Part shown: piece by piece, positions 43,242 through 59,318 of the stretch
Layout of the letters: every line of letters starts with the position of its first letter
How positions within the stretch are numbered: position 1 is the stretch's first letter
NCBI GenBank assembly: GCA_035501175.1
Contig: DATJWQ010000046.1
Span: 9,701 to 73,700, forward strand
Direction: 5' to 3'
Length of the DNA stretch: 64,000 bases
From: Verrucomicrobiia bacterium
GTDB lineage: Bacteria > Verrucomicrobiota > Verrucomicrobiia > Palsa-1439
Translations under genes and position numbers: made by a program
The notes under the pieces: model-generated
What the model saw: only the letters and a program-made list of their open reading frames with translations
Database searches by the model: none
Told to the model about the DNA's origin: nothing

Positions 43242-43904
43242 GGTAACTCCTTTGTTTTGTCCGAATGTTCTCCGGCGGTCCTGCTTGGAGGAGTCGAGTG
43301 CAGTCCTTCTCCCGGACTGAATCCAGAAAGCCATCGCCAGTGATCACGCTCCTACGCCCATGGCTGTCAGATTACAAGCGAAATCCCGCGGAAGCATCCC
43401 GGCGAAATGCATTGGCCTTGATCTGCACGGACAATCGGGATCACCTCGATGCCAACTCCGCCTGGCCCTCGGCAGCCCTCGCCCTGTATCACGGCCCGAC
43501 GAGGGCAAGGCGTGAAATCCGGAACGGACACGCTGGCATTGGCTCCTTACTGAAGGATATGGCGGAGGTGGGGGTCTGGCGGACTCGCGGCGAGACTGTG
43601 GCTGTAGCCGGAGAGCGGAGGCATCAGGTCGCGGCGTTGCGGAAGGCGTGGGCGAGGATGCCGGCGTTGGAGGGGTGTGCACACACGTACACGATTACCA
43701 GGAGAGGGGTACTCGGCGTGCTGATGGGGCTGGTCCTGACATGCGCGGCGGACGAGGGATCGAGGTACGAATGCCATCATATTTGTGCTTGTTACTTCCG
43801 TAGCGAAGCCATACTGTGGTCAAGGAAAAGTTTGTAACGAAACCGATGGGATTGCTGGCCCGACGCTGTTGATGGTTGGGCCAAAATTGTGATTGGAGGC
43901 CGAA

Positions 43905-44477
43905 ATGTGTCACACCCGTTTGGGTTGTGTTCTCCTTGTGTCGGCGACACTCGTGTCGCTTGCGGTTGTATTGCCGAGCATTCATGCGGCAGCAGCGCCG
44001 CCAAAAGTCACTGACGTTGCTGGAGGTCAGAGTGGCATTTCTGGGAGTCAAACCAATAGTCCGACGCCGGAGGCTTCTGGCGCAGCCCTAACTACCATCC
44101 CGGCCGAGCAGGCCAAACAGCACGTTGGGGAGACCAACACGGTTTGCGGACTGATTGCCAGCGCGCGCTACATGGACTCGACAAGAGCCAAGCCGACGCT
44201 GCTGAATTTTGTCCACCCCTATCCGGACCATGTGTTTTCCGTCATGATCCCCAACTCGGCCAGGTCCAAGTTCAAGGATCCTCCCGAAACCGCGTTTATC
44301 AACAAGACGGTGTGCGTCACGGGGGCGATCATTGATTATCGAGGAAAGCCGGAAATTGTGGTGGACGACCCTTCGCAACTCGTGGTCAACGAATCGGCGC
44401 AGGTCAGTCCTGATACGACGGCCACCAACACAGTCCAGAAGACCCCGGCGCCGGGCAACGCTCCCGGACACCTGTAG
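43905..44477 (+). CDS. secreted hypothetical protein (domain shared with the 44714-45358 product)
   Basis: Signal peptide (LLVSATLVSLAVVLPSIHAAAA). A roughly 100-aa domain (QHVGETNTVCGLIASARY...KTVCVTGAIIDYRGKPEIVVDDPSQLVV) is paralogous to the neighbouring convergent gene. Confidence 0.5.
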   Translation: MCHTRLGCVLLVSATLVSLAVVLPSIHAAAAPPKVTDVAGGQSGISGSQTNSPTPEASGAALTTIPAEQAKQHVGETNTVCGLIASARYMDSTRAKPTLLNFVHPYPDHVFSVMIPNSARSKFKDPPETAFINKTVCVTGAIIDYRGKPEIVVDDPSQLVVNESAQVSPDTTATNTVQKTPAPGNAPGHL

Positions 44478-44713
44478 GATTGGAAGCCTTCATCCGCGCT
44501 GATTTCGCTGCGGAGTTTCGTTCTGCCCGGTCGCGCATTCTTGCCGGGCAGGGTGGCTTGGAGTTGTTCCCCGGCATGCAAGGCCGGACCAGATGATTGG
44601 GGCAAAGGCCGTATGCCTGCGCGAAGGGTGATACAGCCGACACTTGCGTGGTTCGTCGCTGCCGCGGCAGGGAAAGCAGGCGGAGGTTTACTTGCCGTGC
44701 TGGTGACAGCCGG

Positions 44714-45358
44714 CTAGTTGTTGGACGGAGGAGTTGGCGTATCTTCCACGACGATTTGCGCGGGGTCGCTGACCACGATCTGCGCCCGGCCGCGGCGGTC
44801 CGTCGTGATGAGGCCGGTGACACAAACCGATTTCCCCGCGAACGCGATTTCAGGAGCGACTTTGAAACGGGCCCGGCTCGCCTCGGCGATGACGACGGCG
44901 CAACTCTGGTGGGGGAACGGTCGGTCGAAGTTCAGGTACGTGGGATTTCCCGGTGAGCCGACCGCGTATTTTGCGCTGGCGACGGTTGCGCAGACGGTGT
45001 TGGTCTCCCCGACATGCTGGATCGCTTCGTCTCCGGTAAGCGTTTGGACGACCTTGATGCCGGCTGTGGCGAACAACGAACCGAGACCGCAGGCCGCGAC
45101 GATGGCCAGGAGGTAAAAGCAAACAGGATGACGACCCTTGGGCTCCCGACCTTTCATCGGAGTGTAGACTACCATGAGACCGGACCGGATACAACACATA
45201 GCTTGATCAAATAACCGAGCGGTTTGATGCGTTGGAGCAGACTTTTGCCCGGTAGCCACGACGATGATTCCTGCGGTTGCGGTGACGCGGCTGTTGGCGG
45301 TGAGCTTTGCGGAAGGCGCGGGCGAGGATGGCGGCGGTGGGGGAGATGAGCGTCGCAT
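44714..45358 (-). CDS. secreted hypothetical protein (paralog of the 43905-44477 product)
   Basis: Hydrophobic signal/anchor, then the shared domain (IQHVGETNTVCATVASAKY...KSVCVTGLITTDRRGRAQIVVSDPAQIVV). Confidence 0.5.
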   Translation of the reverse strand: MRRSSPPPPPSSPAPSAKLTANSRVTATAGIIVVATGQKSAPTHQTARLFDQAMCCIRSGLMVVYTPMKGREPKGRHPVCFYLLAIVAACGLGSLFATAGIKVVQTLTGDEAIQHVGETNTVCATVASAKYAVGSPGNPTYLNFDRPFPHQSCAVVIAEASRARFKVAPEIAFAGKSVCVTGLITTDRRGRAQIVVSDPAQIVVEDTPTPPSNN

Positions 45359-45441
45359 AAGCGAACGCGACTTTTGGGTGAGGTGGATTTGCCGTGAATA
45401 CAGGTCTGACGTCGGCTACCGAGGGGGAGGAGAAGTTGGGG

Positions 45442-47040
45442 TCAAGGCGCTCTTTCCGGATGAGGATTGAGCTCGTTTAATGCCATGGCTACTTCGGCGG
45501 AGACTTCCGAATGGGTATCGGCAAGTTTCTGGAGAACGGGGACGATGAGATGGGCCTGAGACTTGAATTCTGCCAGTGAAATGATAGCGGTCTTGCGCAC
45601 CTGCTGGTCTTCGTCATTGATGGCGGCAATCAGGGCGTCAACGCTCGCCTTGTCTTCGGCGTGCACATGACCCAACGCCCAAGCCGCCAGATACCGTGTA
45701 TACGAGTCGCTGGTCTTGAGGAGGCGAATTAGAGCCGGGACAGCGGTTGTGACGGATGCACTACTTTTCATATTGGGGTTGAGGCTTGCCAACCCGATAA
45801 TGGCACCTCGCTGAATGGTCAAATTGGTGTTCGATAAAGCCGCGATGACCGGGGCATATTCACCGACTTGAACCAACTCGCTGGCGGCTCGGCCGGAGTC
45901 CTTTTCGTCATTGAGCTGTTCCGTCAGGCGCGCAATTTCCGGCTGGATGGACTCCGGCGGCCTCTGCAAACACTCGCGCACCAGCCTGGGAAACTCGCCG
46001 TCCTGGGAAGCCGCGTCGACGGTGATGGCAATGTCTGCGCCGGGCAAGAGTTCGTGATACACCTGCTCGATTGTGATTTTCTCTTTTGATCCCAACGGTT
46101 GCCACTCGCCGACGACGCCAGCCGGATAGTCGTGATGTTCCACCGGGTTTAACTCCCAGCGCGGGGTTTCAAAATGCGCCGAGATCCGGAGATAGATCTG
46201 ACCCTTCGAGCCGGGAACGGTGTTCTGCATGAAAGATGAGTCCACCGAGGTCTCCAACAAGTTGTCGGTAGCGGATCGGTTAACGGAAGCGCGAGGGATG
46301 CTGCCGGATGCGATGCCACTGTATCCTTTGACCTCCAGGACAATCTGCTTCTGGATGGCCGACACTCGGTCGGCGATTGCCTGTTTCAAATGCTCGTCAT
46401 ATATACGATAGTTACCTTTGTTCTTGGCCCACCAATCCCACCACCAGCGGACAAACTGCTCGTGTTTTTCCCCGGTCGAATACTGGTAAAAGTTCGCGTA
46501 GTCGCGCCCGGTGATTTGACACAGGATTTGGGCGGCTTGATCCCGGATGGTCGTTTTAGTGCCCGGATAATCGAGCATGATAATCAACGGCTCGATGACG
46601 CTGGGGTCGCTGATCTCGTGCCGATTGGCCAAGTCTCGCAAGAGATACATCCGCCCCTCATTCCACTGGCACAACCGGCGCAAGGCCGCTTCCGTCGGCG
46701 TATCGGCGGACGTTGGCTGGTAGAGCACTCGGTCGACGGTGTCGGCGGAGATGCAGTCGCCATTGGTGGTGCACAACGACAGCTCGCGGGCGGCCGCGAC
46801 GGCGATTCGATTACGGTACGCTGGCGACGGATCCTGAATTGTGTCGACCCAGTTCCCCGTCCATCTGCTTCCTCCCTTTTCGCCAGGAAACGGAGCATGC
46901 AGCAACGATTCCAAGCTTTGCTCGGTATTCGTTGCCGGGGATTTTGTAGCGGCAGCTTCCTCGGCATGGGCGGCAACGGAGTACCGCATCAACGCTCCAC
47001 CCCAAACGAGTGCGAGAGCGAGGAGGAGTTTAGATGTCAT
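45442..47040 (-). CDS. secreted HEAT-repeat (PBS-lyase-like) protein
   Basis: Signal peptide MTSKLLLALALVWGGALMRYSVAAHA. C-terminal HEAT-like repeats (YTRYLAAWALGHV..., QQVRKTAIISLAEF..., SAEVAMALNEL). Lower GC than the core genome. Confidence 0.7.
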   Translation of the reverse strand: MTSKLLLALALVWGGALMRYSVAAHAEEAAATKSPATNTEQSLESLLHAPFPGEKGGSRWTGNWVDTIQDPSPAYRNRIAVAAARELSLCTTNGDCISADTVDRVLYQPTSADTPTEAALRRLCQWNEGRMYLLRDLANRHEISDPSVIEPLIIMLDYPGTKTTIRDQAAQILCQITGRDYANFYQYSTGEKHEQFVRWWWDWWAKNKGNYRIYDEHLKQAIADRVSAIQKQIVLEVKGYSGIASGSIPRASVNRSATDNLLETSVDSSFMQNTVPGSKGQIYLRISAHFETPRWELNPVEHHDYPAGVVGEWQPLGSKEKITIEQVYHELLPGADIAITVDAASQDGEFPRLVRECLQRPPESIQPEIARLTEQLNDEKDSGRAASELVQVGEYAPVIAALSNTNLTIQRGAIIGLASLNPNMKSSASVTTAVPALIRLLKTSDSYTRYLAAWALGHVHAEDKASVDALIAAINDEDQQVRKTAIISLAEFKSQAHLIVPVLQKLADTHSEVSAEVAMALNELNPHPERAP

Positions 47041-47044
47041 TGTA

Positions 47045-47938
47045 TCAATCGATGATTCCCCAAGCCAAATAGGGATTGGAAATGTTGCGGATGGTGTCCG
47101 CGGGGCGTTCTTCGAGCACATTTTGTTTCGGGTCTGAAGGTTTAAAATCGACATCCACCCTGATGTACGGACAGCGGCGATGAACAGACGTTCGATGCTT
47201 TGCGGTCGAAAGGCCACCCTCCGTGGTAAAAACCTTAGAAAGCTCTGCGCGTGTCATTCCGGGCTTAATCTTCTGACACTCGGTGAGAATGTTGGAAATC
47301 TGCTTCGTGAGATATTCGTCAACGCCGTTGCCAGTGGATTTCCGCCCATTCGTTTCGTCGAGTGTCTTCTCTGCCTCCCAACTCACGAGCCTGTCGTGCT
47401 CATCAAACTGTAGTGTGACCTCGTTCAGCCATGACGGTGTTTGGGCGGCCGTCTCGTGCTGCGAGACCTGCACTCTCCCATCGTTGTTCGTCGTGGGCGG
47501 TAGCACGTCGAGGGTGACTTCGTCACTCCAATACGTCTTCCGGCTATCGATCGGCGTGAAGCCCATACGAAACGAGACTGTCTTTTGGGAAATCGGTCCC
47601 GAGACGAGCATCTCCAACTGGTTCGTATATACGCCACCGGGCGGGAATTCGACATTCCTCGCCACGTTTCTCGTACACTCTCCGACAATCCAGGAGACGT
47701 TTGTGTTGCTCGTCTTCCATTCGTCCTGCCAACGGCAACTCATCACGCGCACGGTTTGATTGGTTGCTGTCGGATTCTCAACGCGCAGTGTGACCGGGAA
47801 AACTTCTTTGATGCGAACCACGGTCCTGGAAGGTGTGACAACAACCCGAAGTGAGTCTGCGTCGGCGGCGCCTGCAGACAAAGCCGCCAATGCGCCACTC
47901 CAAACGAGCGCGAGGCAACAGATGATTTTGGGGTTCAC
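47045..47938 (-). CDS. secreted mosaic protein: family signal peptide, unique N-terminal domain, conserved roughly 90-aa C-terminal domain shared with the 50982-51890 product
   Basis: GTG start encoding VNPKIICCLALVWSGALAALSAGAADA. C-terminus ILTECQKIKPGMTRAELSKVFTTEGG...CPYIRVDVDF...NPYLAWGIID. About 85% nucleotide identity to 50982-51260. Confidence 0.6.
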   Translation of the reverse strand: MNPKIICCLALVWSGALAALSAGAADADSLRVVVTPSRTVVRIKEVFPVTLRVENPTATNQTVRVMSCRWQDEWKTSNTNVSWIVGECTRNVARNVEFPPGGVYTNQLEMLVSGPISQKTVSFRMGFTPIDSRKTYWSDEVTLDVLPPTTNNDGRVQVSQHETAAQTPSWLNEVTLQFDEHDRLVSWEAEKTLDETNGRKSTGNGVDEYLTKQISNILTECQKIKPGMTRAELSKVFTTEGGLSTAKHRTSVHRRCPYIRVDVDFKPSDPKQNVLEERPADTIRNISNPYLAWGIID

Positions 47939-47945
47939 AGCCGTC

Positions 47946-48494
47946 CTATTTCTTTCGCGACTCAAATGTTTTTTGCGACTCGCGTCCTTCCTGTGATTCG
48001 AGTTCCCTGATATACACCCCGTCTTCGATGTAGACAAACCGCAGCGTCTCGGTATCAAGAACAAAATCCGTCCACGCCATGCGTCCCCACGGCACTGCGA
48101 TGAATAACATCTTTTCGTTGAGCCAAGCGTGGCGAATCTCGTAACTCGCCTGATCAAGCAGCTCCACGCGGACACACCGATTCGTGTCGGCGGAATCAAA
48201 GATATAAAGCCGCGTATCCCAGGGCCCGGCGCGCCTGGTATCCGGCTTTTCTTCGACCAGCCACCGTGAATTAAATTCTGTGTTATCTTTCGGCAGGGAA
48301 GCCAATTCAGCCAGTTGTTCGCCCGTCAAGGGAATGCGCTTGATTTTGATTTTCTGCAAACTGGCCCCAGAAGGTGTGGAATACAACACGGCATCCTGTC
48401 GCGGTGATGGAACCGTCGTGCATCCGAGCAGACCGCCGCTCCAAACGAGCGCGAGGGCGAGGACTTTGAGAGTGTGGCGCGCAGTGCTTCGCAT
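47946..48494 (-). CDS. lipoprotein, hypothetical
   Basis: Signal with lipobox (LKVLALALVWSGGLLGCT). Lower GC (about 50%). Confidence 0.55.
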   Translation of the reverse strand: MRSTARHTLKVLALALVWSGGLLGCTTVPSPRQDAVLYSTPSGASLQKIKIKRIPLTGEQLAELASLPKDNTEFNSRWLVEEKPDTRRAGPWDTRLYIFDSADTNRCVRVELLDQASYEIRHAWLNEKMLFIAVPWGRMAWTDFVLDTETLRFVYIEDGVYIRELESQEGRESQKTFESRKK

Positions 48495-48500
48495 TGTGAG

Positions 48501-49265
48501 TTATGGCGTCTTTAGCGGCACGGCAAATGGCTTCCCCGTATTCAGATCCATCTCCTGCCCATCAACAACAGACCTGCTTACCTTCTTGGCGGTGAGATCC
48601 ATCCATATACTTCCCAGCTTCTGCGTCTTTGGATGCCGTATATCAAGCCGCAAGATGCCATCGGTTAGGTCTATCGCTTCGACCAGAGGCATTACCAATC
48701 CTCCGCCCGGAGCCGGGGCGTCCGAGAAATAAAATTGCGGAAGGGACTGCATTAATTGTATTCGATTAGCTGTTATGCGCTGATTGAACTCGTGACTCAG
48801 CTTCTCGGTGTTGATCTCTTTCTCAAACTGAGCAATGGCGGTGGTGCTGGAATTGGTGTCAGGCAACCCGAAGTAACTGCTCGACCAAACCAGAACGCCA
48901 GGGCCGACAGTGAACCCCTTCATTCCAGAGCGATCGGAAACGTAAAAGGAATGTTCTCCGTCAATGAACCACCATTTCTTGGTATGGGGATCGTCAACTT
49001 CCAGGATCGAAAACCTCTCCGGTATAAGACTTCCGGGGTCGGGCTTGGGTACGACTTGATAGACAGCCCGCCTTACCGTAGTTGTCTCAGTTTTGCATTT
49101 GGTTGCAGGCGGCCCGGAAGAACCGGGCACGATCAACTTGATAGTGCTATCGGCCCACGGCTCGATAAATTCAGTTTTCATGGGCGTTGCGTTGGAAACG
49201 CTATCTCCCATCGAATACACCAAGGTTGCCACCAAGAGAAAGAAGATCACAGCAGTGTATTTCAT
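48501..49265 (-). CDS. secreted hypothetical protein
   Basis: Signal peptide MKYTAVIFFLLVATLVYS. GC about 48%, the lowest in the window. Confidence 0.55.
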   Translation of the reverse strand: MKYTAVIFFLLVATLVYSMGDSVSNATPMKTEFIEPWADSTIKLIVPGSSGPPATKCKTETTTVRRAVYQVVPKPDPGSLIPERFSILEVDDPHTKKWWFIDGEHSFYVSDRSGMKGFTVGPGVLVWSSSYFGLPDTNSSTTAIAQFEKEINTEKLSHEFNQRITANRIQLMQSLPQFYFSDAPAPGGGLVMPLVEAIDLTDGILRLDIRHPKTQKLGSIWMDLTAKKVSRSVVDGQEMDLNTGKPFAVPLKTP

Positions 49266-49378
49266 TGTTTCAATTCGGTTCTGCCTTCATTGGACACCTG
49301 GTTTGGGCGTTCGTTCGCTTACGCGCGCCAAAGAAGCGGATTGCTTTGCCGTTCGCTCCGCTGCGTCATCAGACGGCG

Positions 49379-49993
49379 TCATGGCTTCTTGACCGCAATT
49401 TTGACCTTGGGCAGTTGAAGCGTTCCCTGCCAGACGTAGTAGTTGAGGGAACTGGGGTGGTTGGTCGGGGGGCGGAACGTGGCCGACAAGTAGTAGTCGT
49501 TGGTAGCGCCAGGCCGAATGTCCCACAAGTCATCGGGGCCTACCAGTATGCTTACCCCGTCGGGCTTCGTCGAGTCAGAGCACAAACCGGGATCGGCTTG
49601 CAACCGCAGGGTGGAATTGCACGGCAACGTCACCCAGTACGGATTCGTCGGCACGTAGGCGTCAATTGGAGGGGATTTGTACGGGATGGCTTTGTTGAGA
49701 CCATCGTGCATTTCAAAGTGCAGGCCGGCGGACATACGGAAACAAATCTCGATCGGGTTGCGCCAGACATCGGTGCAGATGTGTTGCAACTCCAGATAGA
49801 CTCGGGCGTGTCCCCACATTTTGGTTCTGCTGTAATACTCCGCATCGTAAATGAGCAGGCGTCCGCGAAGCGTGTACCCGGCGGGATCACTGACGGGTTC
49901 CGACCAATCGCCGACGGCAATGAGGTTTGTGTCGGTCTGGGCGAAGGCGCAGGGAGGGCCGGCGAGCAACAGGAATAAGACGACGGACTTCAT
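49379..49993 (-). CDS. secreted hypothetical protein homologous to the N-terminal domain of the 50982-51890 product
   Basis: Signal MKSVVLFLLLAGPPCAFAQ. Shared blocks NLIAVGDWSEPVSD, GYTLRGRLL, VYLELQ, TLPCNSTLRLQ and WQGTLQLPKVKI. Confidence 0.6.
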   Translation of the reverse strand: MKSVVLFLLLAGPPCAFAQTDTNLIAVGDWSEPVSDPAGYTLRGRLLIYDAEYYSRTKMWGHARVYLELQHICTDVWRNPIEICFRMSAGLHFEMHDGLNKAIPYKSPPIDAYVPTNPYWVTLPCNSTLRLQADPGLCSDSTKPDGVSILVGPDDLWDIRPGATNDYYLSATFRPPTNHPSSLNYYVWQGTLQLPKVKIAVKKP

Positions 49994-50216
49994 AATGTGC
50001 GAACGCCATTAGACCTCTGATGAAACACCAAGAAAAGCACAAAGGCCAGCCTCCACGTTGAGTAATTTGCGAGCCTCGCGGCTTGAGGTGCGGAGAACTG
50101 CCGCGCTTGGCAACCGCGGCTACAGTTCCCGCTTGATGATGCGGCTATCTCCCGCCCGCAGCCCGCTCTTGCCCTCTGAAACCCGCCCCTGCCACTCAAG
50201 TCCACCCCTGTACCGT

Positions 50217-50801
50217 CTAGTCTGATATAATGAAGTCTGCAAAATTGGACTGCAAAGTGCCAACCCAAGTGTTCCACCCCACCCAAACAAACCCGCTGTT
50301 ATTGTGGTGTTGGTGGGTTTCCGAGAGTTGAGCAGCGATACGGTAGGCCCCTTTCTCTAGTTTCATCGTCCATTCCTTTGTTTGCGGACACCAATACTGG
50401 CTAAGCCTGACCCTCAAAACATGAACTGCACCCGCTTGAAGTCCAACTGCATAGTCATCAATCCGCCCTGAGACACTAGCCGGGCCGGTTGGCTCAAGTT
50501 CTCTGCGATGTCCTTGAGCATCCAGGAGAACAAGATGAATGGCTGTAGGAAAGAGACTACGTCCGTTTCCGAGGGTCATACCGAGATTCAAGAATACGTC
50601 GTTCGTGCCGACATTCCGCACCGCAATGTCAAACTCAGGGTCTTGCCCTGTTTTAAGTTGGGTATACACGGGAGAAATTGCGATTTGTAATCCATTGCTG
50701 GCGGTTCCCCAAAACTCAGGTGCGTCGTTGACCAATGAGGTTGCATAGGAGCATGGAACGGAAACGATCAGCAGCACGGCAAGGCTCAGAGTCTTAATCA
50801 T
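50217..50801 (-). CDS. secreted hypothetical protein
   Basis: GGAGG ribosome-binding site; signal peptide MIKTLSLAVLLIVSVPCSYA. Confidence 0.55.
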   Translation of the reverse strand: MIKTLSLAVLLIVSVPCSYATSLVNDAPEFWGTASNGLQIAISPVYTQLKTGQDPEFDIAVRNVGTNDVFLNLGMTLGNGRSLFPTAIHLVLLDAQGHRRELEPTGPASVSGRIDDYAVGLQAGAVHVLRVRLSQYWCPQTKEWTMKLEKGAYRIAAQLSETHQHHNNSGFVWVGWNTWVGTLQSNFADFIISD

Positions 50802-50828
50802 TGTTGCCTCCTTCTGTCCGTCGATTCA

Positions 50829-50978
50829 TCAATCCGTTCTTGCCGTCACGGACAAATAACTCTGTGCTGCGTTCGTCGAGACCGGTGCATTGGTTTCGTC
50901 AGCGCGGGCAACACGGGCACAGCCAGACAAGCCGACGCCCCAAACCAGCGTGAGGGTGAGGAGGAGTTTAAATGTCAT
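50829..50978 (-). pseudogene. 49-codon ORF encoding only a family-type lipoprotein signal peptide (MTFKLLLTLTLVWGVGLSGCA...); probable gene remnant or micro-lipoprotein
   Basis: Begins with the same conserved cassette (atgacatttaaactcctcctc...) found at the starts of the 45442-47040 and 56657-57964 genes, then stops after 49 codons. Confidence 0.35.
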
Positions 50979-50981
50979 TGT

Positions 50982-51890
50982 TCAATCGATGATGCTCCAA
51001 GCCAAATACGGATTGGAAATCTTGGTGATGGTGTCTGTGGGGCGCTCTTCTAGGACATTCTGTTTCGGGTCTGAAGGTGTAAAATCGACATCCACCTTGA
51101 TGTACGGACAGCGGCGATGAACAAACGTTCGATGAGCCGCGGTTGACATGCCGCCTTCGGTTGTGAAGACCTTCATCAGGTCGGCGCGGGTCATGCCGGG
51201 CTTGATCGTCTGGCATTCCGTGATAACGTCCAGAATCTGGTCCATCAGGCCCTTGTCGATTTCAGATTTCCGGGTCGTGGCAGGCGGGACCTTGACTCTC
51301 GGCAGCACCAACGTCCCGTGCCAGACGTGTCCGCGTGCAAGTTCCTTTCGCATCGCCTCGATGTCGGTAGAGTTGGACTTGGGCACGGTGAACGTCCCGG
51401 AGAGGAAGCGGTCGCCAGGAGCGCTGGGTGGAAGGAACCAGAACGCTGCAGGGAGCTGAATCGCCCAACCGGGGCCTTTGGGGATTCCCCAGCCATTGAC
51501 GGAAACGCGGAAGCGCAGCGTGGAATCGCAAGGAAGAGTCAGTGTGGTGATCGCGTCAGGCAGTGGACCGATAATGTCCGCCTCTGTGGGCGTTGGTGGC
51601 GGTGTCTTCCCCGCAGCATCGACAACCTCGCAATCCAGCGCCCGCTCGCTGTAGTCCACAAGTACCGAGGCGAGGATGCGGGATAGGTTCTGCAACTCGA
51701 GGTACACGACAGCCGTACGGGTGCCATTGTATGGCGCGTCTTCGGCAAGGATGAGTCTTCCGCGAAGCGTGTAGCCATTATCGCTCACGGGCGCCGACCA
51801 CTCGCCGACGGCGACGAGGTTGGTATGGGTTTGTCCGAGGGCACCTGAAGAGCTGGCGAGCAGCAGGAACAAGACGATGGACTTCATCAT
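50982..51890 (-). CDS. secreted mosaic protein: N-terminal domain shared with the 49379-49993 product plus conserved C-terminal domain shared with the 47045-47938 product
   Basis: Signal MMKSIVLFLLLASSSGALGQ. C-terminus ITECQTIKPGMTRADLMKVFTTEGG...CPYIKVDVDF...NPYLAWSIID. Confidence 0.65.
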   Translation of the reverse strand: MMKSIVLFLLLASSSGALGQTHTNLVAVGEWSAPVSDNGYTLRGRLILAEDAPYNGTRTAVVYLELQNLSRILASVLVDYSERALDCEVVDAAGKTPPPTPTEADIIGPLPDAITTLTLPCDSTLRFRVSVNGWGIPKGPGWAIQLPAAFWFLPPSAPGDRFLSGTFTVPKSNSTDIEAMRKELARGHVWHGTLVLPRVKVPPATTRKSEIDKGLMDQILDVITECQTIKPGMTRADLMKVFTTEGGMSTAAHRTFVHRRCPYIKVDVDFTPSDPKQNVLEERPTDTITKISNPYLAWSIID

Positions 51891-52158
51891 GGGCGATTAC
51901 CCTTCATACCAGTCGAGCGTGCGAATGCCATTAGACCGCTGATGAGACGGCGAGGAAAGCACAAACGGCGGCCATTGTTGCCGGGCGCGCGCGGAAGGCG
52001 CGGGCGAGGAGAGGGGCGGTCGGCATGAAGTACGGAGCTGGGTCCTCTTACTGACTGACGATAAGAGCGCAGCCGGAGATTGTTCACCGAGTCGTGAACG
52101 CGGCTTTATTGTCTGAGTGCCGTTTCGTCCTCTCGGCTGCGCTCCCGATCCTGAATCG

Positions 52159-54030
52159 TCAGGGCGTGACCTGCATCCGATAGAATCGTTGGGGTCCCAA
52201 GGCCCCGCCGGAGTTGGTCAGGATGATCAACCCACCGGGGCTATTGCTCAGGACGACGCCCGAGACGTTTGCCCAACTGCCCGTCGTCATTGAACTCCGG
52301 GTTTGCAATTGGTAATCGTCCCCCGCAACGGCCTGGGCGGAGACGGCGACGCCATTCGGGATCGCCGCAATCCCGCAGATCTGATTTGTCGTCCCGCGGG
52401 TCGGCGCGAAGTTGGCTGTCAGGATCTCGCTGTTCGTCGCGGTGAACGTATAACACGGCAAAGTGCTGACCACGTTGCTATTCGGATCAGTCCAGCTCAC
52501 GAAGTTGTAACAATCGTCCGGGATCGCGAAGATCTGTACGGGGAAGCAGCAACGGATGGTGCCGCCGCCAGTGGTCCAGCCGCCATTCGGTTGCGCGGAA
52601 GCGGTACCGGTCGTATACGTACACGCAATCAGGCAGGTGAGCGTTGCTCCATAGCTGCCCGTCCCTGAATAGTTGCCGGAATGCACCAAGAGCGTGTAGA
52701 CACCGGAGACACTGAATGTGACGTTACTGGCTGTACCCGGACCGATGCTGAACAATTTGTTGCCGGTTGGGTCGTACAGGTCGAACTCCGAACCGCTGAA
52801 GCCGCTGGTGCTGATTATCACCACGTCGTTGCTGCAGCCGTCGATTTGATAGGCATCCATCTCCGCTCTGTTCGTGGTGGCGCCACTGACAGTTTGTCCG
52901 CAAACGATCGGTTGACCATCGCACCCGCCGCCAATGATCGACTGAATGCTCAACTGATAGTTGCCGGTGCCATTGTAGGAGGCAGCATGCACGAGGATTG
53001 TGTACGTACCGCTGTTGGTCAGGGTCATGTTGATGGCGGTGCCGGCGTTGCAGTTGGGTGAAGCTACGGTGGCGAGGTATTGCCCGCTAGGACTATAGAT
53101 GTCCGCGTTCATCGATTGGTAAGGTGAAAGGCAATCGAGCGGCCCGTACAAGGCGAACGACAGGTCCTGCCCGGCTGCGCCAACGTAGCTGTAGGCGTTG
53201 ATCTCACTGTTAAAAACCGTGTTGCTCGCAATTGGCTGGCCACAGGTAATGGGTGTGCCGTTACACCCACCCTCGATAGCTGATTGGATACTCAACTGAT
53301 AGTTGCCGGTGCCATTGTAGGAGGCAGCATGCACGAGGATTGTGTACGTACCGCTGTTGGTCAGGGTCATGTTGATGGCGGTGCCGGCGTGGCAGTTGGG
53401 TGAAGCTACGGTGGCGAGGTATTGCCCGCTAGGACTATAGATGTCCGCGTTCATCGATTGGTAAGGTGAAAGGCAATCGAGCGGCCCGTACAAGGCAAAC
53501 GACAGGTCCTGCCCGGCTGCGCCAACGTAGCTGTAGGCGTTGATCTCACTGTTAAAAACCGTGTTGCTCGCGATTGACTGGCCGCAAACAATGGGTGTGC
53601 CATTACACCCGCCGTCGATGGCTGACTGGATACTCAACTGATAATTGCCGGTGCCATTGTAGGATGTGCAATGCACAAGAATTATGTAGCTGCCGGTATT
53701 CGTTAGGGTCATGGTGAGAGCAGCACCGGTGTTGCAGTTACCCGATGTAAGGGCGGCCAGATGCTGTCCGCTAGGGCTATAGATGTCCGCGGTCATTGAT
53801 TGGTAAGGTGAAAGGCAATCGAGTGGTCCGTACAATGCGAACACCAATTCCTGCCCCGCGGTGCCGGCGTAGGTGTACTGGTCGACTTCGCTGTTGGCAA
53901 CGGTGTTGCTTGCGATTGGTTGTCCGCAGGTGATGGGGGTTTGGGCGCGGACGGCCCTCGCCCAGAAGGCCAGCCCGAACACCAGCAGGACGTAGAAATT
54001 GAACGCGCGGTTTGTCGAAGATGTTTTCAT
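52159..54030 (-). CDS. secreted protein with four tandem PPC-like (pre-peptidase C-terminal-like) domains and a C-terminal tail
   Basis: GGGAGA ribosome-binding site. Signal MKTSSTNRAFNFYVLLVFGLAFWARAVRA. About 110-aa units, three nearly identical (ITCGQPIASNTVFNSEINAYSYVGAAGQDLSFALYGPLDC...DIYSPSG...GTYTILVHAASYNGTGNYQLSIQS). Confidence 0.65.
   Translation of the reverse strand: MKTSSTNRAFNFYVLLVFGLAFWARAVRAQTPITCGQPIASNTVANSEVDQYTYAGTAGQELVFALYGPLDCLSPYQSMTADIYSPSGQHLAALTSGNCNTGAALTMTLTNTGSYIILVHCTSYNGTGNYQLSIQSAIDGGCNGTPIVCGQSIASNTVFNSEINAYSYVGAAGQDLSFALYGPLDCLSPYQSMNADIYSPSGQYLATVASPNCHAGTAINMTLTNSGTYTILVHAASYNGTGNYQLSIQSAIEGGCNGTPITCGQPIASNTVFNSEINAYSYVGAAGQDLSFALYGPLDCLSPYQSMNADIYSPSGQYLATVASPNCNAGTAINMTLTNSGTYTILVHAASYNGTGNYQLSIQSIIGGGCDGQPIVCGQTVSGATTNRAEMDAYQIDGCSNDVVIISTSGFSGSEFDLYDPTGNKLFSIGPGTASNVTFSVSGVYTLLVHSGNYSGTGSYGATLTCLIACTYTTGTASAQPNGGWTTGGGTIRCCFPVQIFAIPDDCYNFVSWTDPNSNVVSTLPCYTFTATNSEILTANFAPTRGTTNQICGIAAIPNGVAVSAQAVAGDDYQLQTRSSMTTGSWANVSGVVLSNSPGGLIILTNSGGALGPQRFYRMQVTP
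52870..53530. repeat. near-identical roughly 330-bp tandem repeats (two full copies) inside the PPC-domain gene; a third more diverged copy follows to about 53850
   Basis: 52890-53220 and 53221-53550 differ by only a few bases (for example gtgccggcgttgcag versus gtgccggcgtggcag). Confidence 0.8.
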
Positions 54031-54588
54031 GATCCGTTTCTCCCTACGATGATTTTGTCGGTTCACACTTGTCGTACGTTGTCGCTGCGCCGGGCGAATT
54101 CTGTTCGCACGGGAAATTCAGATCTCCTTTTCCGGAACGCAGAATGACGGACAGGCAGGGTGAAACAGTGGGATGAAGACACAGGAATTCCTCGCCCTCA
54201 TGGTTTCTCGCCTTCCTTATCCTCGCCTCGGTGCAGACGCTCCCAGGCCGGTGCTTTCCTGACTCGGCCTGGCGACACAACTCGCCATTGGTTATGTATT
54301 GCTCCTAGCCTGGCGCAGACAGGGCACCGGGTCGGGCCGTAGAAAACAGGCCCTCAAACGGGGTGACGTGGCTTATACGCGTATGGAGGTCATAATTGCA
54401 AGACATTTTGGATGACGGTTTCGTGATAACTGGCTGGGCGTGCCGAAGAAGAGAAGGACATGAAGACGCCACGGCGGAGACGCTTCGGTCGGAGGAAGTG
54501 CGCGGTCGGGAGACCGGTGCACAACGAGCGGCACGGCTCGGAGAGCCGCGCCAGAGGCGGGCAAGCCGTGGCTACACCGGCGACGCGC

Positions 54589-56082
54589 TTATCGTCGGCA
54601 GGTTTCGCGGAAGGCGCGGGCGAGGATGGCGGCGTTGGTGGCGATGAGGAAGTTGTGTTCGGTCCAGGCGCGGCCCGAGTTGCTGAGGCGTTGACGGAGA
54701 GCCGGATCGGCGGCGAGGCGTTGGACGGCGGTGGTGAGGTGGGCGGGGTTGGATGGGTCGGCGATGATACCCGTGACGTCGTGGGTGACGGCTTCCATCG
54801 GGCCGGCGGTGGGGCTGGAGATCACGGGCAGGCAACGGGCGAAGGCTTCCGGGATGACGTTCGGGATGCCGTCGCGGTCGCCTTCGGGATCGACGATGCC
54901 GGTGTGCCAGAAGATGTCGGCCCAGAGATATTGATCGTTGACCTGATCGGGCGGGAGCGGGCCGGTGAGCGTGACGAAGTCGTGAAGGCCGGTGCGGTCG
55001 ATTTGCTGTTGAAGTTCGCGGCGGAGCGGGCCGTCGCCGACGATTGTTGCTACAAACGGCACGCCACGGGATTTCAAGAGCGAGCAGGCGGCGAGTTGGT
55101 GGACGTGACCCTTCTTCGGGACGAGACGGCCGACGGAGAGGAGTCGGATCGGGCGTGAGGTCGAGGTGGTGGCGTCGCGTTTCGGGAGAGGCGGAAGTTT
55201 TTCCAGGCCGCGGCGGGCAAGGACGATTTTCACGGGCGCGCCGTGGGCGCGGTCGCGGAGGTATTGCGCGGCGGCGTTGGTGGTGGTGTGGACGAAGGCA
55301 GCGGCGCGCAATTTGGGTTCCAAGAACGCGTCGCCGCCATGACGATAGATGTCGTAGGCGTGACCGCCGAAGCTGAACGGGACGTTGCAGAGTCGGGCGA
55401 GGATGGCGGCGGCGGTGGCGGGCGCGGTGGCCCAGACGCCGTGGATGATGTCGGGTTTGTGTTGGCGGAAGCGGCGGGCGCGGCAGATGGCGAAGACCAC
55501 GGCCCAGATGGTTGACCAGAAATTCTCGGGGTTGGTGGGTCGGTAGCGGCGGAAGAGATGCCAGCCGTCGCGGAGGAGGGCGGGGTCGCGGAGGAGTTCG
55601 CGGGGCAGGGCGATGAGGACGGCGATGGATTCCCACCAGCGGAACGTGTCGACGGGGATGTCGGCGATTAGTGATGAAGAACCCGCCTTCGCCACACGAC
55701 TGGCTACGGCGGGCAAGCCCTCACCCTGACCCGCCTTCGCCACACGACTGGCTACGGCGGGCAAGCCCTCTCCCTTATCCGGCAAGGGCGAGGGGACTCT
55801 CGTCTGTGGCGTCGTTTGGTGAGTGGGAGATTTGCGCTTTGAATTTTGACCAGGGAGAAGCTGTGCCAGGTCGGCGGGGCGCGGGGGGAAGAGCGAGTGG
55901 ATTTCGATGCGGATGCCGTGGTCGCGGAGGCCGGCGAGTTCGCGGCGGAAGAAAGTCTGGGAGAGCACGGGGTAGCGCTCGAAGATGTAGGCGACGGTGA
56001 GGCCACCGACATCCAATGTCGGGGTGAATACGGGGGGGTTAGTTTTCAATCGTGGAGCGTATTCAGCGGGTGCGTCAGTCAT
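54589..56082 (-). CDS. glycosyltransferase family 4 with a low-complexity N-terminal insert containing a 15-aa duplication
   Basis: GT4 C-terminal motif (EAFARCLPVISSPTAGPMEAV). The insert GEGLPAVASRVAKAG occurs twice, encoded by a 45-bp tandem duplication around 55690-55790. Confidence 0.7.
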   Translation of the reverse strand: MTDAPAEYAPRLKTNPPVFTPTLDVGGLTVAYIFERYPVLSQTFFRRELAGLRDHGIRIEIHSLFPPRPADLAQLLPGQNSKRKSPTHQTTPQTRVPSPLPDKGEGLPAVASRVAKAGQGEGLPAVASRVAKAGSSSLIADIPVDTFRWWESIAVLIALPRELLRDPALLRDGWHLFRRYRPTNPENFWSTIWAVVFAICRARRFRQHKPDIIHGVWATAPATAAAILARLCNVPFSFGGHAYDIYRHGGDAFLEPKLRAAAFVHTTTNAAAQYLRDRAHGAPVKIVLARRGLEKLPPLPKRDATTSTSRPIRLLSVGRLVPKKGHVHQLAACSLLKSRGVPFVATIVGDGPLRRELQQQIDRTGLHDFVTLTGPLPPDQVNDQYLWADIFWHTGIVDPEGDRDGIPNVIPEAFARCLPVISSPTAGPMEAVTHDVTGIIADPSNPAHLTTAVQRLAADPALRQRLSNSGRAWTEHNFLIATNAAILARAFRETCRR

Positions 56083-56656
56083 TCCGTGCGGAGGATAGTA
56101 TGTTTGCGGGGGTTATTTCAATGGTGGCGGGAGACGATGGGTGAGAATCGGCAGACTCGTCCTCAGATTGGAGTGATGGAGTGAGGGGGTACTGGAGTTT
56201 TGGACGCGGATCCTCCCTCAATTCGGATGCTTTCGGCTCCACGCAGCCCCGAACTCCGAACGAGTTCGCGAGTCCTGCGGAGGAATTCGGGGTAAAAGTT
56301 CGCAGAGGGCGCAGAGAACACCCGGACTGATCTTTGCCCGATTCGGTAAGGGGCCAAATCAGGCAAACGGCACCCGGGGGCGGTGGCGGAGTGGGGCGCG
56401 GCGGGCAACGCCTTTGCAGAAAGGAGGGACCCCGACCTCGACCGTTCCGCAGCCCCGACGTACACAGGCCATCCGCGTTGTGTCAATACTAAGGACTGAC
56501 CCCTTTATGACCCCTTTACTAAGGACTGACCCCTTTACGGGGACGGTTGCGTAAAACGTTGACCCCCCTTGACCGCCGAATTCAACGGGAATCGTCGTTT
56601 GCTCCTCCGCCCGTTGTAGGGGCGCTTCTGCGAAGCGCGCGCGATTGGGCAAATCT

Positions 56657-57964
56657 TCATTCACTCGTAGCTATTCTCTTGAGTGCAGACCGCGCGGCAC
56701 GTCGCACATTCTCGTCGGGATCGACAAGAAGTTGCTTAAGATCTGGGACGGCTGCAATTGCGACCGCTCCTAAACGTCCCAATGCATCAGCGGCATGCAT
56801 TCGAACGATGTACTCCGGATCGTGCAGCAGGGCGACCAACCCGGGCGCGGCATCCTTTGCTCCCGGGCCGATCTTACCAACAGCAACCGCACCCCAGTCA
56901 CGAACGAGATTGCGATAACTCCGGCTTTGATCCTGGAGCGTTGAGGTTAGCAAAGGCACTGCTGATTCGGCGTGCGGTCCAATTGCACCAAGGCAATATA
57001 TAATCGCAAGGCGTCCCTGTAAGTTCTCTGTTTGATATAGCCGCATCAAGGCGGGAACGGCTTCTGCTGCATTTGCACCTCGGTCCGCTATTGCGCGGAC
57101 TGCGAGCACACGAATCTCCGCGTCTTTGTCCTTCATGAGATCGATGAATATGGAGACGCTCCTTGTGTCGTTGGGAAGTGACACGGATAATGCGTCCGCA
57201 GTCATATACCGCGCACGGTTATCCAGTGCCTCGTCGCGAAGCAAATTCAGTAGCGAGGGGATTGCCTCCTGAGCTGCGCGGCCCATCCGGCCAAGGGCGC
57301 CGAGGGCCGTAACACGCAGCTTGGTGTCCCGGAGGGCTTGCGCTAACTGTGGGGCTGCTTGCACGGCCGACGGCCCCACGGAATCCCAACACTCAATAAT
57401 CTTCAGTCGTGTCTGTTCATCGCTGGTTTGATAGAGTGTCATCAGCACAGGCATTGCTTCCACGGCCTTCTCATGAAACGTGCCCAAGGTAGTGATAGCC
57501 AGATCCCTCAGGTCCGGGTCGTGCTCTTTTAGGAGTTCGACATAGGCCGGAAGCGCGTCCGGATCACGAGGATAGACTCTGTCCAAGGCGTATGCGGCCG
57601 ATAGGCGCACTTCCTTCGGCTGGCTCTTGTCTTGCACCATTTTAATCAACGCGGGCGCGGCCGCCTGCCCGGCCTCAGCGATCTTGCTAATGCCGTAGAG
57701 AGCTTGGTCAACATTGGTGCTTTGGGCAGTAATGATAGTCCCGGGAACAGCTTGGCCTGCTTCATTGGTTGAGAGGCTCGAAAGCGGCGGGCTGGCCGCA
57801 TGCTCGTCTTGAGTCACACCGAAGGAAGATTGGAGCCGAACGGCGAACAGCCATATCACGAGCACCACTAGATTAGGCACTGCATGCCTGTTTTTGTGTG
57901 CCCCAAAGCCAAGCATGCTGACGTTCCAAACGAGCGCAAGGGCGAGGAGGAGTTTGGGGTTCAT
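56657..57964 (-). CDS. secreted HEAT-repeat (PBS-lyase-like) protein
   Basis: Family signal peptide MNPKLLLALALVWNV... Multiple HEAT-like units (EVRLSAAYALDRV, RDLAITTLGTF, RVLAVRAIADRG, VRMHAADALGRLG, VRRAARSALKRI). Confidence 0.7.
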   Translation of the reverse strand: MNPKLLLALALVWNVSMLGFGAHKNRHAVPNLVVLVIWLFAVRLQSSFGVTQDEHAASPPLSSLSTNEAGQAVPGTIITAQSTNVDQALYGISKIAEAGQAAAPALIKMVQDKSQPKEVRLSAAYALDRVYPRDPDALPAYVELLKEHDPDLRDLAITTLGTFHEKAVEAMPVLMTLYQTSDEQTRLKIIECWDSVGPSAVQAAPQLAQALRDTKLRVTALGALGRMGRAAQEAIPSLLNLLRDEALDNRARYMTADALSVSLPNDTRSVSIFIDLMKDKDAEIRVLAVRAIADRGANAAEAVPALMRLYQTENLQGRLAIIYCLGAIGPHAESAVPLLTSTLQDQSRSYRNLVRDWGAVAVGKIGPGAKDAAPGLVALLHDPEYIVRMHAADALGRLGAVAIAAVPDLKQLLVDPDENVRRAARSALKRIATSE

Positions 57965-57997
57965 GGCTTTGTGGGGCATACAGCCGGCCTCTTGAAA

Positions 57998-58342
57998 TTA
58001 CAACAGGTGCGCGACGACGAATAGAAAGAGCAGAAACGTTAGAAGTAACAAGGGCACGGCGGCCACGGCGAACGTTTGAAGCGCGGGTTTCACGTCGCCC
58101 CGAATAGCTTGCAGCACGGCTCCGAGCACCAGGAACGGTGCGCACAACGCGTAGGCCGCTAGCAACACGTCTGTGGTGTGATCAATCCTGGAGGCATTTA
58201 CTCCCGTGAAATGAATGATAATCGGATCGCCGAGGAGAATACGAAAAACCAAGTAGAACGGGAAAACGCTGACGACATACAGTTTGAATGGAATCAGCAC
58301 CCAATTGGTCCATTTGGCTTTCGTGAATGGGGAGCGGCACAT
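57998..58342 (-). CDS. small membrane protein, hypothetical
   Basis: 114 aa with three predicted TM helices; preceded by the conserved leader motif. Confidence 0.45.
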   Translation of the reverse strand: MCRSPFTKAKWTNWVLIPFKLYVVSVFPFYLVFRILLGDPIIIHFTGVNASRIDHTTDVLLAAYALCAPFLVLGAVLQAIRGDVKPALQTFAVAAVPLLLLTFLLFLFVVAHLL

Positions 58343-58512
58343 GGTAGATCATGATTGTTGTAGTGCAGACGCCATTAGACTGCTGAAGGGGCGGCAAGGA
58401 AAGCAGAAAGAGGAGTAGTTGGCAGTTGGGAATCTATTTCGCCAGGCTGATCGCGGTGATACTATATGGATCGTGCGGTTCGGCGCCGACACAAAGCCAT
58501 GAGGAGTTGCTT

Positions 58513-58875
58513 ATGAAACGAGTCCTTGGATTGTTGGTCGTGATGACACTTGCATGTCAAACCCAGATCGCCCAGTCCGCGCTGGAGGGAGATCGTACCA
58601 TCCCACTCCCGAAGTATAGTCCTGCTCAAGCGATTGAAAAGGTGAGCAAGTATTATCGGGACGACAACGGCGATCCCGAGTGCTTCGTGATTTCCGTCCG
58701 TTACGGGCGACCCGACCTGATGGGGCCTTGTCTGGGCAGCAATTCGGTGCGCGGAGATTGGCAGGAGTGGTCATGGTTTGTCACATTCGCGCATCCTAGG
58801 AAACCCTACTCGGAGATCGTGTACCGTTTGCGGGACAACGGAGAGATCTACCCGCTCATTCAAGCGCGCACGTAA
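58513..58875 (+). CDS. small secreted hypothetical protein
   Basis: GAGGAG ribosome-binding site then MKRVLGLLVVMTLACQTQIAQS signal peptide. Confidence 0.45.
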   Translation: MKRVLGLLVVMTLACQTQIAQSALEGDRTIPLPKYSPAQAIEKVSKYYRDDNGDPECFVISVRYGRPDLMGPCLGSNSVRGDWQEWSWFVTFAHPRKPYSEIVYRLRDNGEIYPLIQART

Positions 58876-59033
58876 TAGCGGTTTGAAGTGGCTGAATTGT
58901 TGGGGGCGTGGTCGACAGGCTGGGGCGGAGCGGCCAGCGCATTTACAAATAGGAGAGAACGAAGATCGACCATTGCACGGGAACGACGTAGGCAAAGCGA
59001 GCGGCGTTGCGGCGATACTGAGGGCTGACCCGT

Positions 59034-59318
59034 TTATGGTGTGAAGCCCCAAATCATGAACCCCGCCGAGAATACCACTACCAATCCGAGTCCACCGGCG
59101 ACGTAATCGCGGCGCATTAGACTGACAACAGAAAGCGGCAGAACTGCGAGGAAGCAGGCCAACCCACCGTACAGGAGCCACGGCCCTATGTTGGGAAAAT
59201 GGTGCCCGACAAGCCGGTCGTAACCAAGAATTAGAAGTAAAAAGGGCGTCCAGAACATTCCTGCGCCGCAAATCGTAAGGGTCACCAGCAATCTCCGTAG
59301 TGTGCAAGGGGTTTTCAT
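59034..59318 (-). CDS. small membrane protein, hypothetical
   Basis: 94 aa with three hydrophobic helices. Confidence 0.4.
   Translation of the reverse strand: MKTPCTLRRLLVTLTICGAGMFWTPFLLLILGYDRLVGHHFPNIGPWLLYGGLACFLAVLPLSVVSLMRRDYVAGGLGLVVVFSAGFMIWGFTP

Follow-up and report, generated by a model that had tools for sequence, protein, structure and literature searches.

Shared gene-end modules and probable recombination among exported-protein genes of soil and peat Verrucomicrobia

In conotoxin genes, the signal sequences are conserved even at silent sites and the mature parts vary, and in the contact-dependent inhibition (CDI) and Rhs systems orphan toxin/immunity modules retain part of the conserved coding sequence upstream, so that homologous recombination can bring about replacement. 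In these families, conservation falls on a large delivery domain or on a eukaryotic exon, and the variable parts are toxins, not mixed exported proteins. The vsp and vpma clusters of Mycoplasma switch by DNA inversion, have repeat-rich mature regions and belong to host-associated pathogens. We report here on a stretch of 64,000 nucleotides (nt) from a Verrucomicrobiia bacterium (contig DATJWQ010000046.1, positions 9,701 to 73,700), hereafter called the window, in which the 3' end of one gene and the 5' end of the next form a conserved junction. In M. bovis vsp and M. agalactiae vpma, every member has a highly conserved 5' non-coding stretch and a conserved lipoprotein signal-peptide coding region before a divergent mature part, the content varies between strains, and a site-specific recombinase of the tyrosine (Xer) type adjoins the clusters (PMC3365025). 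For the S. aureus lpl cluster, Tsuru and Kobayashi proposed a recombination model acting via a conserved segment (PMC2568036). The rAID-1 elements of Bacteroidales carry a 5' XerD-like recombinase, non-coding intergenic repeats and a skewed GC content (bioRxiv 10.1101/471110), and the polyimmunity loci include HEAT, ankyrin and LRR repeat proteins among their immunity proteins (Zhang et al. 2012, PMC3482391).

The window architecture belongs to none of these families; its kind is recombination at conserved gene-end modules. The flagged stretch, at the start of a HEAT-repeat gene, is one joint of a lineage-specific modular gene architecture, and the finding exceeds a local duplication. We consider it likely that recombination at shared 5' and 3' modules shuffles exported-protein genes in soil and peat Verrucomicrobia (Limisphaerales/Pedosphaera-like). 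On our comparison, the lpl cluster appears closest in logic and the vsp/vpma clusters closest in anatomy. As in lpl, where recombination at a conserved segment leads to deletions, conversions, translocations and substitutions, the ends of the open reading frames (ORFs) are phylogenetically incongruent (PMC2568036), and a two-gene evolutionary unit is present. The arrangement is however inverted: lpl consists of paralogues with a central conserved crossover region and variable junction-spanning parts, whereas here the junction is conserved and the gene bodies are mostly unrelated.

The junction block and domain X

The names of homologous proteins place the window in Verrucomicrobiae, near Pedosphaera/Limisphaerales. 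The genes of interest in the window all lie on the minus strand and are lettered A to L in the order of their transcription. The alignment of the window with itself by blastn gave one block of 293 nt, in which positions 47000-47292 match 50938-51229 with 82.9% identity (E 1e-81), and a repeat search paired 47045-47311 with 50982-51248 at 81% identity. This block holds the last ~82 codons of gene K (or E), the stop codon, a spacer of 4 nt (or 3 nt) and the first ~13 codons of gene L (or stub F). Its first copy joins K (47045-47938, 297 aa) to the HEAT-repeat gene L (45442-47040) across the spacer TACA at 47041-47044, and its second joins the 3' end of E (50982-51890, 302 aa) across the spacer ACA to the start of F (50829-50978), a stub of 49 codons. 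The ATG of L at 47040 starts MTSKLLLALALVW, and the 5' end of the gene (46985-47040) encodes the n- and h-regions of a signal peptide (MTSKLLLALALVWGG), then a c-region (..SVAAHA). The ATG of F at 50978 starts MTFKLLLTLTLVW and opens a complete family signal peptide (MTFKLLLTLTLVWGVGLSGCARVARA), after which the frame stops. The first-pass annotation had described the junction as identical across the spacer; the conservation does cross the gene boundary and reaches much farther than that annotation had it, with the two copies being 83% identical rather than identical.

A degenerate 30-nt pattern for the signal-peptide core had exactly three strong copies in the window (47040, 50978 and 57964; three mismatches or fewer), for 0 expected from 100 shuffles. 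The conserved coding of M-x-x-KLLLALALVW reported earlier at these three starts was therefore confirmed, as were the looser copies at 47938 and 48494. The third strong copy heads gene B (56657-57964), a second HEAT-repeat protein whose ATG at 57964 starts MNPKLLLALALVW, with the module at 57925-57964; the likeness between B and L is at the level of the repeats only. The GTG start of K at 47938 opens VNPKIICCLALVW, and the protein consists of the module, a variable middle (~47340-47893) and a 3' module at 47045-47311 that encodes domain X (~85 aa, ..ILTECQKIKPGMTRAEL..CPYIRVDVDF..NPYLAWGIID) with the stop codon. Gene J (47946-48494) encodes a 182-aa lipoprotein, starts MRSTARHTLKVLALALVW at ATG 48494 and has an altered module n-region (MRSTARHTL-KVLALALVWSGGLLGC). 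Gene E is a chimera of an H-like N-terminal part and X: it is 38% identical to H (49379-49993), with which it shares the N-terminal part, over 209 aa, and 77% identical to K over the last 92 aa. H and E have a common N-terminal domain and their own signal peptide, distinct from the module.

Domain X, about 260 nt, makes up the ~85 C-terminal residues of K and E (..CQKIKPGMTRAEL..FTTEGGLST..CPYIKVDVDF..PYL.WSI.D) and is present in neither Pfam nor NCBIfam. It is 65-80% identical in more than 200 proteins, most of which begin with the same signal-peptide module and whose N-terminal parts are diverse (LysM lipoproteins, F5/8C, ankyrin and others). The profile search with X returned 1,582 representatives at 50% clustering, 887 of them at E up to 1e-10, and among the best 150 of the 1,582 the domain is nearly always C-terminal. 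The carriers are Verrucomicrobiota, with Pedosphaera parvula Ellin514 among them, and also Acidobacteriota, Planctomycetota and others. Two Cys residues and the PYL.W motif are invariant, and the fold showed a weak BamE/BLIP likeness (BamE / SmpA_OmlA, PF04355). That X genes form arrays was considered and rejected, a single X match being found in 78 of the 84 sources (83 loci and the window).

Two other settings of X genes were seen. In nine loci (L011, L012, L014, L015, L023, L024, L030, L045 and L068), the X gene has no trailing module and its stop codon is followed by a recurrent ..ATGCCTAACAA.. sequence, which looks like a dispersed repeat element; the module remnant at 3937-4020 of locus L007 may run into the same element. 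In the Acidobacteriota loci (L048, L056, L058, L064, L071, L073, L074, L078 and L080), the X gene is regularly followed by a conserved ~176-aa gene starting MATLYTIGHSTR, so that its neighbourhood differs from the Verrucomicrobia one.

The joint itself, that is the end of X, the stop codon, 2-4 nt and an ATG with the module, was found at 12 genome loci, comprising the two window joints and ten from other genomes, and three further ones were present in metagenome contigs. It precedes at least eight unrelated gene bodies: the HEAT protein L follows it in the window, and ORFs of 427, 211, 156, 347, 388 and 390 residues follow it elsewhere (the last two counted from the Lys codon of the module). 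About half of the joint loci have a module remnant only (F in the window; L005, L006, L007, L008 and L018/L019). The proposal that one joint had been placed before different downstream genes holds up through these other genomes, although one of its cases in the window (50829-50978) is a truncated stub. We found also 50 families of shared upstream 3' ends or leaders that are followed by the module and then by differing bodies, and one body family (GG(R/K)Q.V..) that stands behind several different upstream ends. Shared ends with different bodies, and one body behind several ends, indicate that the gene order has been shuffled with the module as the seam.

The signal-peptide module and its arrays

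The consensus of the ~50-nt module is ..AACC ATG AAA CCC AAA CTC ATC CTC TGC CTC GCG CTC GTT TTG AGC GGC. In the column profile, conservation starts ~8-10 nt before the ATG and fades after about codon 15 (~-10 to +45). By inspection, the encoded peptide reads M-K-x-K, then LILCLALVLSG, then either a lipobox (LFGC followed by S) or ..A.A; in the window, L has ..SVAAHA followed by EE and J has ..LLGC followed by TT. The same inspection found what is expected of Sec-type and lipoprotein signal peptides, namely a positively charged n-region, a hydrophobic h-region of 7-15 residues and an AxA site or a lipobox ([LVI][ASTVI][GAS]C). Because the c-region is a lipobox or an AxA-type site, the module is read as the n- and h-regions of a Sec signal peptide, and judging from its sequence it probably works as one.

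The conservation of the module goes down to the codons. Across 31 copies from 10 Verrucomicrobia loci, the codon is nearly fixed at each position, with CTC at four Leu positions and TTG at a fifth, GTT for Val (local usage 0.21), GCG for Ala and AAA for Lys, and this choice departs from the local codon usage with binomial P values of 1e-6 to 1e-14. A similarity limited to generic signal-peptide codons is thus excluded, both by the position-fixed codons of these 31 copies and by the 293-nt block that crosses the gene boundary.

An exact degenerate 27-nt pattern occurs in at least 120 metagenome contigs, with 186 copies in these, and lies on a single strand in 119 of the 120. These contigs presumably come from peat, bog and soil samples, as far as we recognise the names of the JGI records. 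The same pattern had 0 matches in 2.9 million viral contigs, which gives no link to phages. Module-headed genes follow one another in arrays (at least 12 consecutive genes in L016, eleven in L111, and six each in L131 and L136), with gaps of -4 to +10 nt; the arrays are co-directional, and the stop codon of one gene touches or overlaps the start codon of the next. Single-linkage clustering sorted the 194 unique bodies that follow the module into 78 families (44 singletons), and homology was seen in only 2 of 216 body pairs from the same contig. These unrelated bodies, together with conserved segments that lie at the gene ends, differ from the paralogues and the central conserved region of lpl. 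Pfam domains in the bodies include serpin, WG repeats, LRR_5, TPR, HEAT, beta-propellers, BNR/sortilin, DUF2092, F5/8 type C, GH99 and GDSL lipase, and most representatives of the body families had no Pfam domain.

A common conserved 5' leader and signal-peptide coding region is shared with the vsp, vpma and vsa families, but we found no recurrent recombinase among 105 flanking ORFs, and in 119 of 120 contigs the copies lie on one strand instead of in both orientations. Unlike in vsp and vpma, the mature parts are unrelated folds and enzymes, and the hosts are free-living peat and soil bacteria. The long, co-directional, close-packed arrays of unrelated genes with a repeat at each boundary resemble integrons and rAID-1 and suggest gene acquisition. 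Unlike in rAID-1, the repeat is here the coding start of a gene and no recombinase recurs; RNAalifold on 30 segments found no structured non-coding site, and the GC content (0.52-0.58 across the cluster, 0.54-0.68 in its flanks) has no distinct skew, although the cluster values are among the lowest in the profile. One orientation, tiny intergenic gaps, structurally unrelated proteins and a strain-variable content are likewise features of the polyimmunity loci (PMC3482391). Here, however, the array members that Pfam recognises were only generic binders or inhibitors and some enzymes, with no Imm or SUKH family and no other named immunity family among the Pfam matches returned. We saw no toxin context either, and polyimmunity loci have not been described as having a common signal peptide that is conserved at the nucleotide level.

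Stub F belongs to a class of signal-peptide-only stubs. Among 161 complete module ORFs, 47 (~29%) have 10-39 codons and only 2 have 40-100 codons. When 50 stubs with a downstream ORF were considered, 24 of them stopped within 8 nt of its start codon, 11 as ATGA overlaps, and the genes downstream are often small membrane proteins or bearers of their own signal peptide. Identical stubs recur in independent samples (L138/L147/L155/L198, L144/L182, L089/L190 and L086/L109).

The stubs could alternatively belong to cassettes with a trailing module. The module would then be the attachment site of a site-specific recombinase, the cassette would comprise body, stop, spacer and trailing module in an integron-like geometry, and the stubs would be trailing modules of terminal or displaced cassettes. 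The discrete 3' boundary of the module, the bimodal stub lengths, the co-directional and tightly packed arrays of unrelated genes and the module remnants that X genes keep outside arrays (L005, L006, L007, L008, L018/L019) are all in line with such dedicated gene capture. We nevertheless consider it unlikely. The 105 ORFs that flank the arrays in 84 array-bearing contigs, most of them short, are housekeeping genes without a recurrent integrase or transposase in the 25 leading Pfam families listed, and gene calls within 10 kb of the window cluster contain no recombinase. The module is moreover coding and in frame, lacks an inverted repeat or a fold, and is absent from the viral contigs. The folding of the 30 module segments, both by RNAalifold and as single sequences, gave no consensus structure, no inverted repeat and a mean z-score of 0; a small CGCTC/GAGCG hairpin was rejected since it is not kept in the window copies. 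As no dedicated cassette machinery was found, ordinary homologous recombination is the best account of the exchange.

Evidence for recombination from related genomes and competing explanations

The history of the junction block was followed in a quartet alignment of K, E and their counterparts in the related loci L004 and L005. Over the first ~125 columns, the 5' part of X, K pairs with L004 and E with L005 at all 17 informative sites. The region from column 150 to the start of the module, which includes the stop codon and the spacer, supports another pairing, K with E and L004 with L005, at 11 of 13 informative sites, and that of K with L004 at none. This places a recombination breakpoint inside X, at ~47182-47207; the counts (17:0 versus 0:11(+2)) correspond to an exact-test estimate of about 1e-8. 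The synonymous divergence (dS) between K and E behaves in the same way: it falls from 1.32 in the 5' half of X to 0.26 in the 3' half and is saturated again after module codon 14. A general silent-site constraint on the 3' half was rejected by the mean proportions of synonymous differences (pS, 0.62 versus 0.56). Since the two halves do not differ in this way in the X genes of other species and the drop is peculiar to K and E, the low-dS tract is a conversion tract rather than a sign of general constraint. The K/L and E/F joints have thus been homogenised over about 190 nt, at 47001-47195 with its partner at ~50939-51119.

Gene content has also turned over. The segment of J and the start of K is 94.6% identical between the window and L004, where the J counterpart starts MNPKLLLALALVL, and the 5' part of X is ~98% identical. 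The two ends of K, the 5' module and the 3' X, are 95-98% identical in both, whereas the middles are unrelated (~550 nt in the window versus ~490 nt). Gene I (48501-49265) is missing from L004, where the family leader that stands upstream of it in the window (49277-49356) joins the J module directly; in L004 and L005 this leader runs straight into a module-headed gene. In L005, the upstream region is syntenic, with glycosyltransferase genes that are 78-84% identical, genes A and B are missing, and the glycosyltransferase gene is followed only by a 124-aa module-lipobox-X gene and then a module remnant. The replacements, insertions and deletions of bodies among the window, L004 and L005 have their breakpoints at module edges. 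Signal-peptide remnants were found inside two fused proteins, the K counterpart of L004 (9185-10279; '..ILSSGLFGCSTT..', ..LSSGLFGCSTT..) and P0003 ('..FALVLSGGLAAFST..'), which appear from these remnants to be fusions of two module-headed genes via recombination within the module.

A plain segmental duplication could be proposed instead, in which the 3' end of K and the 5' end of L were copied once beside E and later diverged under purifying selection, with no ongoing exchange. The two window copies do form one contiguous block, X is strongly conserved as a protein throughout its many carriers, and F resembles a decayed start of L (48% identity over 46 aa). A single copying event is nevertheless difficult to reconcile with the incongruent quartet and its breakpoint inside X, with the five-fold gap in dS between the halves of X in this pair only, and with the joint standing before different genes in other species. 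Genes with unrelated bodies also share the module at the codon level, and all five window copies carry a rare TTG>TGG variant (L>W, ..LVW for ..LVL), which only 4 of the 301 other copies have and which the L004 counterparts of J and K lack. We therefore regard this duplication as very unlikely.

Chimeric assembly is another conceivable source of such junctions and stubs, because all the data are short-read assemblies and the module is a repeat of 40-60 nt. It is hardly credible here. Three independent assemblies (ENA, JGI and Logan) agree base for base over the window region, with near-perfect matches to the ENA and Logan assemblies that differ only in the copy number of tandem repeats elsewhere and 0 mismatches over 12,983 bases to the JGI soil-metagenome contig 3300032954 Ga0335083_10000327. 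In addition, the same stubs recur in independent samples, and a false join at the module would yield an intact fusion, not a stub.

The explanation that we favour is recombination at the shared modules. A 5' module made of a few leader bases, the ATG and the putative Sec n- and h-regions heads unrelated genes for exported proteins and lipoproteins, X is a frequent 3' module, and an X-ending gene placed before a module-headed gene gives the joint. The module (~50 nt) and X (~260 nt) are 80-95% identical in nucleotide sequence between genes and between species, and could thus serve as portable homology for RecA-type recombination, leading to body replacement, insertion or deletion of whole genes, gene fusion and joint conversion. 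Unequal crossing-over would produce deletions or duplications, gene conversion the K/L and E/F tract, and a double crossover with incoming DNA a body replacement such as that of K; loop-out and re-entry of circles may possibly add translocations. E is a chimera, H-like in its 5' half and ending in X, and F is the leftover of a module-headed gene. The agent would be general homologous recombination, whose enzymology we infer. The first-pass annotation had suggested cassette-like exchange of secreted-protein genes behind a fixed export signal. This idea gains support mostly from other genomes, through the recurrent joint, the turnover at K and I relative to L004 and L005 and the quartet test; the turnover is seen, and it is the dedicated cassette machinery that was not found, ordinary homologous recombination being preferred.

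Three observations weigh against recombination as the whole explanation. The sequences compared are all metagenome assemblies or metagenome-assembled genomes. Differences between module copies amount to 6.71 per 39 nt within contigs and 6.97 between contigs (permutation p 0.13, not significant); as copies within a contig are no more alike than those of different contigs, intragenomic conversion is not the sole force that freezes the silent sites, and either exchange between genomes or selection acting on the DNA or RNA sequence must play a part. Finally, crossover by homology at the module cannot alone make stubs, whose breakpoints cluster just past the module.

The frequent stubs coupled to the next gene suggest that the module, as RNA, also serves the genes as a common initiation or coupling element. 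In its strong form, this would make the module DNA or RNA itself the functional object, either as a common translation-initiation region in polycistronic arrays poor in Shine-Dalgarno sequences or as the target of a small RNA or an RNA-binding protein, with recombination as a by-product. We regard this as possible, and hold it tentatively. Synonymous positions that are fixed across species, the equal distances within and between contigs, a conservation that begins upstream of the ATG and the half of the stubs that end within 8 nt of the next start, like coupled upstream ORFs of genes not exported through the module, all point in this direction. On the other side, no structure is predicted for the module, nothing in Rfam matched 44000-60000 at E up to 1, and the 30-nt pattern applied to both strands detected no antisense copy in the window. 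The mosaic X and the gene-content polymorphisms are also left unexplained and need recombination anyway. A functional module thus complements recombination at shared modules and does not exclude it. A promoter in the junction was rejected, as the scan for sigma-70-like sites was no richer than shuffles; the lone site, at 47068-47039, overlaps the ATG and is conserved neither at the other junction nor in other species.

Other features of the window and biological meaning

The remaining genes of the cluster surround these joints. Gene A (57998-58342) encodes a 114-aa multi-pass membrane protein (..PFK.YVV..PFYF.F..), gene C (54589-56082) a glycosyltransferase and gene D (52159-54066) a 635-aa secreted repeat protein, and gene G (50217-50801) starts 27 nt after stub F. 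The Pfam matches among the window proteins are limited to HEAT repeats and weak repeat matches, and neither Pfam nor NCBIfam gave a match for E, F, G, H, I, J and K. In the public gene calls, L begins at M18 (515 aa) and J at V36 (147 aa), so that both omit the conserved signal peptide. Judged by the homology of the module, the true starts are more likely ATG 47040 and ATG 48494, and exact-sequence look-ups of L and J gave no match because the public calls begin at these later starts.

Homologues of gene A (38-44% identity) were found within the module arrays of five other contigs (L121, L088, L154, L129 and L090), directly after a signal-peptide-only stub in at least three of them (L088, L129 and L154), and gene A may be a functional partner of the arrays. 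Gene D contains three tandem 342-nt repeats at 52907-53890 (93% and 76% identity), one of which is lacking in the ENA assembly of this strain (509 aa), so the copy number differs between samples. At 55681-55776, gene C contains an in-frame 48-nt tandem duplication (96% identity) that encodes a repeated AGQGEGLPAVASRVAK segment and appears to be single-copy in the ENA assembly. A second conserved element of ~55 nt (..TTTGTGCTTTCCTTGCCGTCTCATCAGCGGTCTAATGGCGTTCGCAC..) is located at 49997-50051, 51919-51973 and 58363-58417, just upstream of H, E and A, where three transcription units probably start. Remnants of the final ~35-70 nt of the glycosyltransferase gene (54578-54648, coding ..NAAILARAFRE..) are found upstream of the E leader (51991-52023), just downstream of L (45280-45350) and near 43650 (43634-43673). 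Such direct repeats bracket blocks of the cluster, the pattern expected from Campbell-type insertions by homologous recombination.

A wider role of the arrays can be envisaged, although we find it doubtful: the module might be the core of an undescribed gene-capture architecture without an integron-type integrase, and the arrays export-tagged collections of binders and inhibitors that form periplasmic defence or immunity islands. If this were true, any body behind the module would gain translation initiation together with in-frame periplasmic export or lipidation, and an out-of-frame body would gain a coupled upstream ORF with only the signal peptide. Candidate binders and inhibitors would be the HEAT, LRR, TPR and WG repeats, the beta-propellers, the serpin and the BLIP-like X.

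What makes the architecture of interest is its breadth, a module frozen down to its codons and the frequent stubs coupled to the next gene. In our literature search, whose coverage stopped short of subscription journals, no description of either a common signal peptide or arrays of this sort turned up for Verrucomicrobia. A few gene families of pathogens are known to have signal peptides in common and evolutionary units that span junctions, and here this principle extends to many unrelated exported proteins of abundant uncultured peat and soil Verrucomicrobia. For genome annotation, the true starts of genes such as L and J are missed by gene callers, and both the stubs and X are unannotated. 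The DNA motif of the module offers a route to the accessory secretome of this lineage. With a coding segment of ~50 nt and an 85-aa domain as portable homology, these bacteria provide a concrete case of modular evolution that resembles exon shuffling.

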